Assembly (NCBI GenBank): GCA_013387205.1
Contig: WARV01000009.1
Location: forward strand, 667-64,666
Length of the DNA stretch: 64,000 bases
Source of the DNA: Patescibacteria group bacterium
GTDB taxonomy: Bacteria > Patescibacteriota > Doudnabacteria > UBA920
Reading direction: 5' to 3'
Notes under the pieces: model-generated
The model's database searches: none
Seen by the model: the letters and a program-made list of their open reading frames with translations, nothing else
Told to the model about the DNA's origin: nothing
Position numbers and translations under genes: made by a program
Part shown: piece after piece, positions 3,705 to 52,306 of the stretch
How positions within the stretch are numbered: the stretch's first letter is position 1
Layout: every line of letters starts with the position of its first letter

Positions 3705-3932
3705 AAGGCCCCACGCCAGCTGGACCTTGCGGTCCCATACCAGTTTCCCGGTATGGCTCGTGAAAGCGCTGGACGTAGGGTCCAGTATCTTTCACGAGTC
3801 TTTTTCACCATGCCAGCGGTTGCCCGCTGGTTTAGGCTACTTTTATAAATTGTTAATGTAATTATACCACTTAATTGTAAGGTTTTAAAGCTCCTTTCTG
3901 CCCTTTGGGCAATGTAGACAGTACCGCAAGGT

Positions 3933-4442
3933 TCAAGATAAGTCCAGGTTGTTTTCGGGTTCATCATTATCATCCGGAAGAGCCCCTGAAATTTGATTTA
4001 AATCTGGCCTGTTCTTTCGGTAAGCAAAAACGTAATTTATCGCTCTATCTATCGACTCTTTTTGTTCTGGTGTCAGTTCAGGGTCGTTAGCCACTTGCTT
4101 TAACAAATAATCGTAATGCTGCCTTTCTTTCTGGCCGAGCGGTACCATATACACGCTGCGCTTTTGAATGTAGCGAGGGTCGTTGTTAGAAAGAAAATAT
4201 TTAATAGCGCCAAAATTACCTTCTCTAATTAACTTCATTAAGGCAGCTTCTGCAATATCAATATATTGGTTTCGGCCAAGCTCAAGAGCCACTTCAGCAT
4301 CTTGTCTGAACTTTTTGTTATCTCTAATCCAGCGATAGAATGTCGCCCTGGCTACTCCGACTTTTTTACAAGCAAAACTTACATTGGGGCTATCAGCAAG
4401 GATTTTAAGTAGTTCGGATTTTTCACGACTACGTCTCGCCAT
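3933..4442 (-). CDS. phage terminase small subunit-like HTH protein
   Basis: The N-terminal helix-turn-helix VGVARATFYRWIRDNKKFRQ is typical of TerS/HTH_Tnp-like phage proteins. The gene overlaps the downstream ParB-methylase gene by 14 nt, an arrangement common in phage. Confidence 0.5.
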   Translation of the reverse strand: MARRSREKSELLKILADSPNVSFACKKVGVARATFYRWIRDNKKFRQDAEVALELGRNQYIDIAEAALMKLIREGNFGAIKYFLSNNDPRYIQKRSVYMVPLGQKERQHYDYLLKQVANDPELTPEQKESIDRAINYVFAYRKNRPDLNQISGALPDDNDEPENNLDLS

Positions 4443-5823
4443 AAATCTTCACACGCTTTTTGCCAGTGAACTTCTCCCAGCGGTTCATAATAACCTCGGC
4501 GTAGACCGGCGACTTTTCCATAATAAAGCAGCGTCGACCTATGGCTGTTGAGGCGATTAAAGTTGAGCCACTGCCACCGAACGGCTCGAGCACTAATTGG
4601 TTGCGCTTGGTTAAAACTTTGATGTATGGAATAAGAATTTCGATTGGCTTAACCCCAAAGATAATTCCTTGGCCGGAGGATTTTTCGTCTGCGGCATTAA
4701 ATTCAATGAAGTCCGTCGGGCAGTATTTGTTGCCTTTGTTATAACCTTCCCACTGCGGTTTTCCCTGAATAGCAAACAGGGCTGTTTGATATTCATTTTC
4801 TACTAATTCATCTTCTGGTTCTAAGTCTACGCCTAAATGATTCTGGCTGGTGCCGACCATGGCGATGTCGTGCTTGGAGAAAAATTTAAGTTTTGCGGCA
4901 TAGCCTTGGTTACGGTTAGGAAGATGCCAAACCAACATATTGCGGACTTTCCAATGCTGTTCCATGCTGCCCCAAATTTCCCGGAGGTTTTTCCAGTTTT
5001 CATAAACGATAATGGAAAAGTCTTTGTTCTGTACTTTGGCAACATTGTTCATCCAAAGCTCGGTAAAATCTTCCGGCAGACTTTCGGTTTCCAAGTAGCG
5101 GCGATTTTTCTTGGCACCAAAGCCAGTGGTAGATTCACCATTCCTGGTTTTGCCTTTTAAATAATCTAAGCGATACGGAGGGTCAGTCATGACCATGTCA
5201 ATTTTTTGGTCGCCAACTAGCGAAAGCATATCAGCTTCAATGGTGCTGTCACCGCATTTTAATCTTGATCCATCGAGATCATAAATGTCTCCTTTTTTAA
5301 CGGTAATAGTTTCAATTTGGAGTTTCTCTAATTCTTTTTCTAAGTCAAATTGTGTTTCGACTTTTTCCTCCTCAAAGATTTTATCTAAATCTTCCGAGCC
5401 AAACCCGACGTCCGCTAAAAAGCTTTCGTCATAGGCAGCCAGCAAGTCAAAGTCGAACTCACCTTGATTTTTGTTGAGCCTTAAGTTAAGTTCCTTTTCT
5501 TTGTCCAAATCTGGAATGGAAATGAACACTACTGGCACTTGGTCGTAGCCAAGTTGCTTCATCACTTCAAGACGGAAGTGACCACCGATGACAACATTCT
5601 CACGGCCAGGTGCATTGTTGACCACTAATGGGTCAACGACGCCAAATCGTTTTAAAGATTCTTTTAATTGTTCCTCCGCAGTCTTGTCGTGTTTGCGGGG
5701 ATTATACTCAGCCGGTTTAAGTCCGGTAACTGGCACATACTTGATGTGCAACTGCAAGTTGTCTTGCATATGTATTTTTATTTCTGAGCCAAAAGGCTCG
5801 TTATTAATAAAACGCCCAGGCAC
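4429..5823 (-). CDS. ParB-like nuclease domain fused to N6-adenine/N4-cytosine DNA methyltransferase (DPPY type, beta class)
   Basis: The N-terminal ParB/Srx-like region carries GGHFRLE. The DPPY catalytic motif IV (MTDPPYRLDY) is followed C-terminally by the AdoMet motif I (LEPFGGSGSTLIAS). This is the architecture of phage-encoded orphan methylases. Confidence 0.85.
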   Translation of the reverse strand: MPGRFINNEPFGSEIKIHMQDNLQLHIKYVPVTGLKPAEYNPRKHDKTAEEQLKESLKRFGVVDPLVVNNAPGRENVVIGGHFRLEVMKQLGYDQVPVVFISIPDLDKEKELNLRLNKNQGEFDFDLLAAYDESFLADVGFGSEDLDKIFEEEKVETQFDLEKELEKLQIETITVKKGDIYDLDGSRLKCGDSTIEADMLSLVGDQKIDMVMTDPPYRLDYLKGKTRNGESTTGFGAKKNRRYLETESLPEDFTELWMNNVAKVQNKDFSIIVYENWKNLREIWGSMEQHWKVRNMLVWHLPNRNQGYAAKLKFFSKHDIAMVGTSQNHLGVDLEPEDELVENEYQTALFAIQGKPQWEGYNKGNKYCPTDFIEFNAADEKSSGQGIIFGVKPIEILIPYIKVLTKRNQLVLEPFGGSGSTLIASTAIGRRCFIMEKSPVYAEVIMNRWEKFTGKKRVKIYGET

Positions 5824-50294: not shown

Positions 50295-51368
50295 TCAACC
50301 TAATACCTGGGCTAATTTTCTGACTCCAACATTTTCTTGAAAGGTCAACGTTCCTTGAATAAAATCTTTTATATCTTTATGTAACTGATTGAGGCTGTTA
50401 AAGTCTAACTCATACCACTCTCCGCCGATATTATATTGTTTATACTTTTTATGTAAGTATCTTTCCAGAATCCAAGCTTTATCAGTCCTATAATAATTGT
50501 AGATTTCAATCTGATTCGGGTTTCCAGTTTGTATATTACTGACGCGCTGTTTCAAATTTTGAGTCACACCGATTTTGAAATTGCTGGTTCCAAGAGAACG
50601 AACTATATAAAGCCCTAATTCATCGTTAGCTACGTCGTACACAACATTCTCAGCAAGGTTGCCTTCTTTATAAACCCGTCCGTTAAGTCTAGCCACACGA
50701 CCAAAACCATCATTCATTAAACTGAACCCCAAATCTTCCAACATCCATTCTTGGGCGTGATAAACCGGATCTTTATCATATTCTTTCAGCACATGGCAAA
50801 CTTTTTTGGCAACAGCGTCCCGGTAGTCGTAACCTTCGTAATTTTCGTGAAACCTGGCCGCTTGTGAAGAATTGGTAGCCACAATAAACCAATTCTCATC
50901 ATTGTCCTTGGTCGTAACCCAATATAGATGTTTAGGCTTTGTATACAAAGCTGCTCGCGTAATTAAATGTTTATTTACTATGTAAGAATCTTCACCTTCA
51001 AAGCTATATAGCTGATTTTTATCATCCAAATCCAGCCATTCGTAAGTATTTTTAACAATGCCGCCACGATAAATAACTCTAACACCAATCATATCTAAGA
51101 ACCTGTCGCAACAGTGGATATCTTGATATTTTAATATGGTATATTTTTTCCTAGTGGAAAACTCCCGGTCTATAGAAAAACGGAATGATTCTCCAAGTAG
51201 CTTTTGAATGCACTCTTTAATGTATGATAAATCATCCGTCTGAGCCATTTCCCATCCACGGACGTCTTTATATGGCAGTTGATACTTAAATTCTGAACGG
51301 TTTAACCTGTGGGCTAAAATCTTGCCATTAGGGTGCGTTATTAGAAATCGTAGGCCTGTGATATACAT
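50295..51368 (-). CDS. T5orf172 (GIY-YIG superfamily, MUG113-like) C-terminal domain protein with unknown N-terminal domain
   Basis: The C-terminus GLYIVRSLGTSNFKIGVTQNLKQRVSNIQTGNPNQIEIY...ERYLHKKYKQYNIGGEWYEL matches the T5orf172 pattern (YKIGxTxNxxxRxxxLxTGxP ... gEWFel). It lies ~70 nt downstream of the intron-containing tRNA. Confidence 0.65.
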   Translation of the reverse strand: MYITGLRFLITHPNGKILAHRLNRSEFKYQLPYKDVRGWEMAQTDDLSYIKECIQKLLGESFRFSIDREFSTRKKYTILKYQDIHCCDRFLDMIGVRVIYRGGIVKNTYEWLDLDDKNQLYSFEGEDSYIVNKHLITRAALYTKPKHLYWVTTKDNDENWFIVATNSSQAARFHENYEGYDYRDAVAKKVCHVLKEYDKDPVYHAQEWMLEDLGFSLMNDGFGRVARLNGRVYKEGNLAENVVYDVANDELGLYIVRSLGTSNFKIGVTQNLKQRVSNIQTGNPNQIEIYNYYRTDKAWILERYLHKKYKQYNIGGEWYELDFNSLNQLHKDIKDFIQGTLTFQENVGVRKLAQVLG

Positions 51369-51438
51369 ATATCTTTCAATTATTGACTAAATAAAAAAAC
51401 AAAAACCACCAAATTTTTGATTTTTAGTGGTTTTTGTT

Positions 51439-51812
51439 TGGCTCGGGAGGTGGGATTCGAACCCACGGCCAATCGATTACACTTATCCTGATGTTTCCAA
51501 AAGGGGTGGACTATATCATCATCCTATTCCAGGTGGCTCGGGAGGTGGGATTCGAACCCATCTCTTACCATCTAAAAATATAGGATGCGAGGCGCTTCGT
51601 TCCAAAGTTTTTAGAACTACTCCCATAAAGGGATAGTCTCTGAACCTTCCCGCCTGTTGAGCGGGCTTGGCTGCTGATTACCATTTTACAGGTTTCCAGC
51701 AATTCACCTCGTTTTTCCATTCCCAATTACTTGGGAAGGCTGCTAATGTTTGATCTCCTTTAGAGCGAGATCAGGTCTACAGTCGATTGCTCTACCGCTG
51801 AGCTACTCCCGA
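51439..51812 (-). tRNA. tRNA-Asn(GUU) interrupted by a 299-nt group I intron (exons 51812-51779 and 51479-51439)
   Basis: The joined exons give a canonical 75-nt cloverleaf: acceptor UCGGGAG/CUCCCGA, D stem GCUC/GAGC, anticodon stem AUCGA/UCGAU, loop CUGUUAA, T stem GUGGG/CCCAC, T loop UUCGAAU, G73 and an encoded CCA. Confidence 0.7.
51480..51778 (-). ncRNA. group I self-splicing intron (IC-like core) in anticodon loop between nt 35/36
   Basis: In the minus-strand reading: P1 candidate CUGU/GCAG, P2 CCCAAGUAAUUGGG, P element AAUUGCUGGAAAC, Q AAUCAGCAGCC, P6 CCCGCUCAACAGGCGGG, R GUUCAGAGACUA, S GAUAUAGUCC, and a terminal G before the 3' exon. The P8 region is enlarged and contains a tRNA 3'-half-like copy (51535-51562). 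Confidence 0.65.
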
Positions 51813-52078
51813 ATATGTTGTTTTATAAATTGCCTGCCTCGATGGCTTTTAAGCTGTTTTTCTCTTATCAAGGCTTGTTGGCGAGTATCAACATTTTCTG
51901 AATATATTAGTTGCCACTCACCATCAAAACTTGAAGTGTATCCCTTAAAAGTATGTTCGTTATGTAGCCTTAAACGCTCTGTTAAATTTTCGGTTTGACC
52001 GATATATATTTTCTTATGTTTTGGATTATAGATAGCGTAAACGCTAAACATTAGTGTCGATTGCTCTACCTCCGCCAT
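51803..52078 (-). CDS. small GIY-YIG nuclease family protein (YhbQ/UPF0213-like)
   Basis: VYAIYNPKHKKIYIGQTENLTERLRLHN is the GIY-YIG motif pair. The 3' end (IRE-stop) overlaps tRNA nt 1-10. The 5' end overlaps a duplicated tRNA 5' fragment. The start may be the second Met (52051). Confidence 0.7.
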   Translation of the reverse strand: MAEVEQSTLMFSVYAIYNPKHKKIYIGQTENLTERLRLHNEHTFKGYTSSFDGEWQLIYSENVDTRQQALIREKQLKSHRGRQFIKQHIRE

Positions 52079-52112
52079 CCGCCAACTGGCGGAGGCGGAG
52101 AGCTACTCCCGA
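52056..52112 (-). other. duplicated tRNA-Asn 5' fragment (acceptor/D/anticodon-stem 5' side) with 29-nt palindromic insertion in the D-loop
   Basis: The minus-strand read TCGGGAGTAGCTC[TCCGCCTCCGCCAGTTGGCGGATGGCGGA]GGTAGAGCAATCGAC matches tRNA nt 1-13 and 18-32. Confidence 0.7.
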
Positions 52113-52221
52113 ATACTATTGAATTTTTGAATTCCTAAATATTTTAACAATATTTTAATCTTTTGGCAATACTGGTTTTGTGGAAGTTTTTCATCAAAAT
52201 TATTGGATTTTTTTGTATTTC

Positions 52222-52248
52222 AACGGCTAAACTAATGATTTAGCCGTT
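52222..52248. repeat. conserved-stem hairpin family copy 5 (in divergent promoter region)
   Basis: AACGGCTAAACTAATGATTTAGCCGTT. This is the only copy not in a terminator position. Confidence 0.55.
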
Positions 52249-52306
52249 TAATTTTGCTATCATTGCTTAAAACCACCGCCGTCTTATATAGTGATTAACG
52301 AAATTT

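Follow-up and report, generated by a model that had tools for sequence, protein, structure and literature searches.

How does a transfer RNA (tRNA) gene come to carry a copy of its own 3′ end inside the group I intron that interrupts it? The question is raised by a tRNA-Asn(GUU) gene on the minus strand of a 64,000-nucleotide (nt) stretch of Patescibacteria DNA (lineage Doudnabacteria, UBA920; GenBank assembly GCA_013387205.1, contig WARV01000009.1, positions 667 to 64,666), which we refer to in its entirety as the window and whose own numbering we use throughout. With somewhat better than even confidence, we read this locus as a tRNA-Asn gene that is spliced at a subgroup IA intron between nt 35 and 36, and the copy, which lies in the P8 hairpin of that intron, as the fossil of a partial 3′-exon duplication homogenised by gene conversion. 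What is new here is the rare, apparently conserved exon-derived insert in P8; the intron class itself has already been published.

The interrupted gene is laid out as follows:

51779–51812, minus strand: 5′ exon of tRNA-Asn(GUU), nt 1–35 (34 nt, with a short D loop), ending in CUGU, TCGGGAGTAGCTCAGCGGTAGAGCAATCGACTGT (sequence, ARAGORN)
51480–51778, minus strand: group I intron, subgroup IA-like, 299 nt, lacking an open reading frame (ORF), with its omega-G end at 51480 (Rfam RF00028, homology)
51439–51479, minus strand: 3′ exon of tRNA-Asn, nt 36–76 including the encoded CCA, 41 nt, TAATCGATTGGCCGTGGGTTCGAATCCCACCTCCCGAGCCA (sequence, ARAGORN)
51393–51438, minus strand: terminator-like hairpin followed by a T run, immediately 3′ of the CCA (inverted repeat of 17 nt, 94% complementary)

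When the exons are joined in silico, ARAGORN recognises the resulting 75-nt cloverleaf as tRNA-Asn(gtt) with every stem paired, and with introns allowed it reports the precursor as tRNA-Asn(gtt) i(35,299); in its default mode it finds no tRNA anywhere in the 64-kb window. The Rfam Intron_gpI model (RF00028) matches positions 51762–51487 on the minus strand over its full length (model positions 1–253) with 87.6 bits (E value 5.6e-21), the gathering score being 50 bits. The original prediction, made from the letters of the DNA, had described a group I intron splitting tRNA-Asn(GUU) between nt 35 and 36, and two of the checks that it proposed, a covariance search and an intron-aware tRNA prediction, agree with it: the first is significant and the second calls Asn(gtt) with the intron after nt 35. 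The sequence likewise bears out two further details that it pointed out, a U.G wobble at the 5′ splice junction (CUGU/GCAG) and a terminal G. A contig from an independent Logan assembly (L001, 1013 nt) matches the locus at 100% identity, and the same architecture recurs in a relative, L158, so the arrangement is not an assembly artefact.

The copy itself sits in P8:

51521–51586, minus strand: P8, with a basal stem AUCCUAU (51580–51586) / AUAGGAU (51521–51527) around a 52-nt insert (51528–51579) (covarying stem, alignment of relatives)
51534–51561, minus strand: embedded copy of tRNA nt 49–76 (T arm, acceptor 3′ strand, G73 and CCA), 27 of 28 nt identical to the 3′ exon

The sole difference between the embedded copy and the exon is an A in place of G49, which breaks the first T-stem pair (A.C). 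This leaves an exact 27-mer, TGGGTTCGAATCCCACCTCCCGAGCCA, present at 51439–51465 in the exon and at 51534–51560 in the intron; the repeats are 95 nt apart from start to start, with 67 nt between the copies. No match for such a 27-mer repeat was seen in 100 shuffles, and the 64-kb window holds no third copy of the tRNA 3′ end. The claim that P8 contains a tRNA 3′-end copy therefore stands, as a 28-nt copy within the P8 loop insert, although the position first given for it (51535–51562) was off by one. The accompanying claim of a roughly 110-nt insert between the R and S elements needs trimming: most of that length is the normal anatomy of a subgroup IA intron (P7.1, P7.2, the 3′ strand of P3, and P8), and about 52 nt are truly extra.

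Homologues were sought by scanning species-representative genomes for an S element followed by a T loop, which gave at least 120 loci, among which 77 intron-bearing tRNA genes were listed. In the 76 others, the best local score for an exon copy within the intron is at most 9, compared with 27 here. P8 is a short hairpin of about 5–12 bp in all 14 relatives that we aligned, as it is in the close relatives L161 and L167. A scan of metagenomes for family members with a T loop in P8 produced one further case, L158 (JGI contig Ga0075426_10000688), in which the P8 loop carries GCCGTGGGTTCGAATCCCACCTCCCGAGCCA, identical at 31 of 31 positions to L158’s own 3′ exon. L158 is also the closest relative found (84% over the core and 3′ exon with the inserts removed); a search of viral contigs for the embedded-T-loop pattern gave no match. 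The insert is thus a derived feature shared with L158 and, because this closest relative has the copy at the same place, it would most simply have arisen once, in the common ancestor of the two lineages. Both copies end exactly at the CCA. We also tried to extend the homology of the insert to the whole 3′ exon and rejected the idea: the upstream matches (5/10 in L158, 4/13 here) are no better than chance. For the origin of the insert’s 5′ flank, a short-word BLAST search against all retrieved loci found no match. The insert is predicted to fold as one long P8 hairpin with the T arm at its tip (−24.5 kcal/mol here, −21.5 kcal/mol in L158), the flank pairing with the CCA region in our locus and with CGAGCC in L158.

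Has the copy diverged as intron or as exon? A segment-by-segment comparison of this locus with L158 gives the following ungapped identities:

5′ exon: 94%, 0 gap columns
3′ exon: 98%, 0 gap columns
embedded 28-mer: 96% (1 difference), 0 gap columns
rest of the intron: 74%, 36 gap columns
flanks of the insert: 54%, 11 gap columns

The embedded copy has been kept exon-like and has diverged unusually slowly: by a hand calculation, at most one difference in 28 positions would be expected with a probability of about 0.002 if the divergence were 26% and of about 0.05 if it were 16%. The block of identity is sharply edged, with its only difference at its 5′ edge, which is the pattern expected of a conversion tract. 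The flanks, for their part, pair differently in each lineage in the predicted folds, which looks more like an insert that was fitted into a hairpin than like a conserved functional fold. A pair of 27–31-nt repeats that stays identical while the surrounding intron diverges by 16–26% could mean one of two things: short-tract gene conversion, here open to measurement in an ultra-small genome, or a function of the copy as an exon mimic.

Before weighing these possibilities, the identity of the gene has to be settled, since shifting both splice sites by two bases gives a Thr(UGU) register that likewise folds into a valid cloverleaf. The layout CTGT-intron-TAA is found in 53 of the 77 listed intron-bearing tRNA genes, and these 53 decide the matter. 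In the Asn register every one of the 53 introns has G as its terminal base; the Thr register would put G there in 39, A in 9 and T in 5. All 53 loci likewise have U1 and G73; both are traits of bacterial tRNA-Asn, as in E. coli and B. subtilis, and not of tRNA-Thr. The Thr(UGU) register, with its 5′ site after U33, was accordingly rejected on the Asn hallmarks (53/53) and the missing terminal G (14/53), and the ambiguity resolves to Asn. Our locus has the U1-A72 pair, G73 and, after splicing, the GUU anticodon that mark the family with introns at 35/36. Nakagawa et al. (PMC13011429) likewise assign Asn and describe the mis-annotation as Thr. The practical consequence is that default tRNA finders miss this gene and intron-aware ones often label it tRNA-Thr, which affects both the tRNA complement and the genome-completeness estimates for Patescibacteria. 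Most of the 53 loci are labelled Thr(tgt) i33 by ARAGORN, and 7 are labelled Asp, Tyr, His, Lys or Thr with a cgt or ggt anticodon. The S-element/T-loop scan also caught intron-bearing genes from many phyla that ARAGORN labels Asp, Tyr, His, Gln, Ser, Met, Leu, Lys, Val, Arg or SeC; several of these labels are register errors.

Over the core and exon, our intron is 70–84% identical to genome-derived tRNA-Asn introns of Patescibacteria (Saccharibacteria, Paceibacterota and others). The hosts of the 53 loci are mostly Patescibacteria groups as well (Saccharibacteria, Paceibacterota, Parcubacteria and others), with a few bins labelled Omnitrophota, Planctomycetales or Gammaproteobacteria. Related tRNA-Asn introns also occur in two Agromyces genomes and one Microbacterium genome, outside the strict 53-locus filter, and among the matches listed the nearest for the exons are Saccharibacteria metagenome-assembled genomes (MAGs). 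Relatives that contain an HNH ORF have introns of 511–590 nt and carry the HNH gene in the P1/P2 region (L145, L161, L167, L098 and other loci). P8 had been named as a classic site for insertion or loss of a homing endonuclease gene (HEG), a link that these positions do not support. In L098 a comparable HNH ORF lies outside the intron, immediately downstream of the tRNA.

The expectation that an Asn(GUU) host with an insertion at 35/36 would be unusual has been overtaken by the literature. Williams (2020; bioRxiv 10.1101/2020.01.27.920355) raised the number of intron-split bacterial tRNA types from 4 to 21, and according to Nakagawa et al. (mSystems 2026; PMC13011429) these include ‘Asn.4Ug’. 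The latter paper describes 15 tRNA-Asn(GUU) introns at 35/36 in 95 complete Patescibacteria genomes, classes 25 of 28 introns at 35/36 as IA, finds HNH endonuclease genes in four Asn introns, and reports GTP-dependent self-splicing in vitro for two family members, with the ligated exons sequenced and with splicing abolished by mutation of the terminal G. Since this family is published and we list 53 homologous loci, novelty of host and site can no longer be claimed: on sequence comparison, our locus is a member of the Patescibacteria tRNA-Asn 35/36 family. It shares with that family the host tRNA, the insertion site, the 2-nt Asn/Thr ambiguity and the IA anatomy, and like most members it lacks a HEG; at 299 nt and with no ORF inside it on its own strand, it does not belong with the HEG-bearing, mobile group I introns. 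It differs in the 52-nt P8-loop insert with the tRNA 3′-end copy, which among the loci that we examined is found only here and in L158, and the available portion of PMC13011429 contains no mention of a tRNA 3′-end copy in P8.

The core of the intron can be traced element by element:

51738–51746, minus strand: internal guide sequence UUAGCAGCC, whose GCAG forms P1 with exon CUGU (U35.G) and whose AUUA could form P10 with UAAU of the 3′ exon (read from the sequence)
51720–51737, minus strand: P2 hairpin UUCCCAAGUAAUUGGGAA (covarying pairs)
51649–51711, minus strand: 5′ strand of P3 (51705–51711), P4 (51696–51702 with 51671–51677), P5 (51680–51693) and P6 (51649–51665) (Rfam, RNAalifold)
51634–51645, minus strand: R element, 5′ strand of P7, GUUCAGAGACUA (Rfam)
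51599–51633, minus strand: P7.1 (UCCCUUUAUGGGA) and P7.2 (GUUC..GAAC), a hallmark of subgroup IA (covariation, conserved motif)
51588–51595, minus strand: 3′ strand of P3, GCGCCUCG (Rfam, RNAalifold)
51508–51517, minus strand: S element, 3′ strand of P7, GAUAUAGUCC (Rfam)
51487–51506, minus strand: P9 hairpin CCCCUUUUGGAAACAUCAGG (Rfam, RNAalifold)

The consensus structure comes from RNAalifold applied to an alignment of 23 HEG-less family members, in which 39 of 52 consensus pairs, in P2–P6, P7.1, P7.2, the base of P8 and P9, show changes on both sides (the P7 pseudoknot lies outside the method). GCAGC is present in 14/14 aligned relatives; the P10 pairing is not conserved among relatives. 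The 37 nt that follow the R element, an insertion relative to the Rfam model, correspond to P7.1 plus P7.2, which are conserved and covarying in all aligned relatives. Their motif, GACTATCCCTTT..GGGAGTAG, is common to 36 phage-type introns in viral contigs, 0/36 of them in a tRNA gene, and because of this shared motif we class the intron by its sequence as IA-like, not IC3. Phage-type IA2 introns similarly place P7.1 and P7.2 between P7 and the 3′ strand of P3 with the motif GACUAUCCCUUU..GGGAGUAG (36 viral contigs), which presumably is also that of the phage T4 td intron; unlike ours, they lie in protein-coding genes, and their endonuclease genes occupy other loops. The IC3 tRNA introns (cyanobacterial tRNA-Leu(UAA), tRNA-fMet, Azoarcus tRNA-Ile and Agrobacterium tRNA-Arg) are self-splicing, as ours probably is, and likewise interrupt the anticodon loop, with the tRNA body helping to align the exons, but they are without P7.1/P7.2 and have no detectable close sequence relationship to it. 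Bacterial IC3 tRNA introns are inserted at 33/34, 34/35 and 36/37, according to PMC13011429, whereas our intron has P7.1/P7.2 and is inserted at 35/36. We considered whether GGGAGTAG at 51621–51628 might be a copy of the tRNA 5′ end and rejected this: it is the conserved IA P7.1/J7.1-7.2 motif, and its likeness to the acceptor stem of this lineage is a coincidence. The same holds for GGGAGUAG in the P7.1/P7.2 region, which is a conserved intron motif rather than a tRNA 5′-end copy. A permissive Rfam scan of 51300–52300 returned only the intron and weak T-arm matches.

On the fossil-duplication reading, the gene would be transcribed from a promoter of the TGnTAAAAT type, and the transcript would also carry an upstream GIY-YIG cassette (see below). 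The intron would fold into its P1–P9 core, GTP would attack after U35, wobble-paired to G in P1 (CUGU/GCAG), and the terminal G (51480) would then occupy the G site, so that ligation of the exons gives tRNA-Asn(GUU). In the common ancestor with L158, a DNA-level partial duplication of the 3′ exon would have landed in L8, either through templated break repair or through tandem duplication of the segment from the 3′ side of P8 to the CCA and later loss of an internal stretch; an origin of the copy in recombination between intron and exon, as first suggested, is plausible. P8 varies freely in length within the family and makes no conserved contact, so a structured insert should be tolerated there, and this one would also be tolerated because it folds into a long P8 extension: a natural experiment, in effect, in which L8 accepts about 50 nt of structured foreign RNA. 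The core of the insert would have been kept identical by gene conversion, with the real exon as donor, while the flanks decayed, and deletions between the repeats would be purged, because they destroy the tRNA-Asn gene, on the assumption that it is the sole copy. We infer the splicing of this particular copy, the mechanism of origin, the gene conversion and the absence of function.

Several points weigh against this account. The exon’s T-arm and acceptor sequence is the same in this locus and in L158, and because both exons are alike, selection and conversion predict the same data, with gene conversion a candidate cause of the copy’s identity. A tract of 27–31 nt is near the lower limit for efficient RecA-dependent exchange. 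The exact CCA end of both copies is not predicted by random DNA duplication, before nt 46 the insert shows weak, non-significant homology to the exon (hand count), and retention of the copy in two lineages that differ by 16–26%, despite the deletion hazard, could equally indicate a benefit. One rival reading is a functional exon mimic, with the embedded T arm, acceptor strand and CCA acting at the RNA level by pairing with UCGGGAG of the 5′ exon while the T loop meets the D loop. A tRNA ‘top half’ would then take shape on the intron ahead of transcription of the real 3′ exon, and it might serve to direct folding during transcription, to keep the 5′ exon in place once the first splicing step is over, or to recruit a protein that recognises the elbow of tRNAs. 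We regard this as a tentative alternative, on the unlikely side, and we are slightly more doubtful of its strongest form, in which the top-half mimic is a selected RNA module that steers how the sole tRNA-Asn precursor of a reduced genome folds or is spliced; if true, part of the host exon would be serving the intron as a chaperone in cis. The copy does diverge as the exon does (96%, versus 74% for the intron and 54% for the flanks), is kept in two lineages with the exact CCA end in both, and could pair in cis with the 5′ exon because part of CUCCCGA is unpaired in both predicted P8 folds. Yet it is absent from 51 of the 53 homologous introns and from those spliced experimentally, it has an A.C mismatch in its T stem at our locus, and which part of the strand its flanks tie up differs between the two lineages. 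A match to the exon T stem, as observed, is moreover not needed for any of the proposed roles, and the real 3′ exon already supplies all of these pairings.

The copy could instead be the footprint of a mobile element, either a lost cassette that brought a replacement tRNA 3′ end into or near P8 or a decoy attachment site, the candidates being a GIY-YIG gene, an HNH gene or a recombinase-integrated element at the tRNA 3′ end. Mobile DNA does cluster at tRNA-Asn in these genomes: GIY-YIG genes are flanked by duplicated tRNA halves here and in L159, L161, L164–L168 and L146, direct or inverted copies of the tRNA 3′ end lie 150–330 nt downstream in L145, L118, L104, L115, L133, L135 and L083, and genes for large serine recombinases adjoin tRNA-Asn in L159, L161 and L163. 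We nevertheless think a footprint improbable: the 67 nt between the copies belong entirely to essential parts of the intron and exon, P8 neither contains nor adjoins an ORF remnant or a recombinase, the 64-kb window has no other 3′-end copy, the HNH genes of the family avoid P8, and L158 has the insert but not the GIY-YIG cassette. The repeats do resemble those at the attachment (att) sites of tRNA-integrating elements, in that both are direct repeats running from the T arm to the CCA end, but here the second copy is inside an intron 95 nt upstream with essential sequence in between and no integrase. We rejected an integrase att footprint: a third copy and an integrase are both absent, and the repeats enclose only intron and exon sequence. 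That the copy serves as an alternative 3′ splice or processing site, at which the ribozyme, RNase P or RNase Z makes a second product, was another early suggestion. A G does precede UAAGAG just upstream of the copy, and the UAA could form 3 of 4 P10 pairs; joining there, however, would produce a 68-nt RNA that lacks both the 3′ strand of the anticodon stem and the variable loop, L158 has no equivalent G before UAA at that place, and P10 is not conserved in the family, so we give this very little credence. Equally improbable is a dead locus, a decaying pseudogene with an uninterrupted, functional tRNA-Asn elsewhere. Duplicated fragments do surround the gene, as they might a decaying one, but the stems and conserved bases of the tRNA and all core elements of the intron are intact, the exons are 98% (3′) and 94% (5′) identical to those of L158, a promoter-like box and a terminator are present, and no other tRNA was found in the 64-kb window. 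In addition, PMC13011429 reports the intron-bearing gene as the only tRNA-Asn copy in Patescibacteria genomes.

A second element adjoins the gene upstream and overlaps its 5′ end:

51803–52051, minus strand: small GIY-YIG gene, probable ATG at 52051, 82 amino acids (aa), with its TAG stop inside tRNA nt 8–10 (PF01541, E 5.7e-16)
52056–52112, minus strand: pseudo 5′ half of tRNA-Asn (nt 1–13 and 18–32), in which a 30-nt GC hairpin (52070–52099) replaces AGCG of the D loop (direct and inverted repeats)
52141–52149, minus strand: extended −10-like box TGTTAAAAT (sequence comparison across loci)

Read along the minus strand, the order is thus the TGTTAAAAT box, pseudo tRNA nt 1–32 and the GIY-YIG gene overlapping the real tRNA. 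Mechanical ORF calling gives the GIY-YIG gene 91 aa from a start at 52078; its true start is probably the ATG at 52051, giving 82 aa as in the homologues, which are 82–83 aa long and are labelled Patescibacteria, Parcubacteria or Wolfebacteria. The same box recurs in L158, which has no cassette, about as far upstream of the tRNA, and in several cassette-bearing loci it precedes the pseudo 5′ half; we infer from these positions that it is a promoter. The GIY-YIG module lies upstream of tRNA-Asn in at least seven other loci (L159, L160, L161, L164–L168), some of them named Patescibacteria MAGs, and the overlap with the tRNA gene recurs in L159, L161 and L164–L168. The tRNA genes that bear it are intron-less, carry an HNH-bearing intron or carry an unrelated 200-nt intron; because L158 lacks it, the module is independent of the P8 insert. 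A CCGCCAG(Y)TGGCGG-type hairpin is conserved in the D-arm region of the pseudo 5′ half, which in L166 extends up to the 5′ splice site, and L167 shows nested remnants of repeated insertion. The pseudo half of L166 also has the lineage-specific TCGAGAG of its own tRNA, possibly through concerted evolution of tRNA fragments, although a recent local duplication explains this equally well. Taken together, the module resembles a selfish cassette: it would insert into an essential, single-copy tRNA gene, leave that gene active and borrow its promoter. Both it and SegB, a free-standing GIY-YIG homing endonuclease of the T4 tRNA cluster (PMC2330249), are small GIY-YIG genes among or against tRNA genes; unlike SegB, the present gene encodes a putative GIY-YIG domain alone (82 aa), overlaps the 5′ end of the tRNA and is flanked by a duplicated 5′ half. 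We found no paper describing a cassette of a GIY-YIG gene and a pseudo-tRNA half, and its recurrence, with the duplicated tRNA 5′ half, may perhaps be the more interesting lead.

In these genomes, mobile DNA seems to land at tRNA-Asn quite generally. The extra tRNA 3′-end copies found 150–330 nt downstream lie beyond tRNA-Asn or tRNA-Asp (the seven loci from L145 to L083 given above) and are often preceded by an inverted copy just past the terminator; GGCTCCGCGGATAGGATTCGAA in L104, for instance, is the reverse-complemented tRNA 3′ end, and L135 has tandem units of about 140 nt, each ending in a tRNA 3′ end. These downstream copies may be att-site footprints or small structured elements. GIY-YIG ORFs are also found downstream of intron-bearing tRNA-Asn in L146 and L071, the one in L146 being followed by a degenerate tRNA 3′-end copy.

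At our own locus, the gene directly downstream of the tRNA (50295–51368, minus strand) encodes 357 aa with a C-terminal MUG113/T5orf172 domain, for which a search of species-representative genomes gave no relative; an exact look-up of a neighbouring SDR protein gave no match. The MUG113/T5orf172 domain is related to GIY-YIG, and if this relationship holds here, nuclease-like genes lie on either side of the tRNA. Elsewhere in the window, a full-length match to the Rfam LOOT RNA motif (RF03000) lies at 3722–3838 on the minus strand (87.3 bits against a threshold of 46.4, E 3.7e-15). An 841-aa ORF at 73–2598 on the plus strand weakly matches the sirtuin defence protein Dsr1, and a 464-aa ORF at 4429–5823 on the minus strand has ParB-like and adenine DNA methyltransferase matches; these two may mark a defence or mobile-element neighbourhood.

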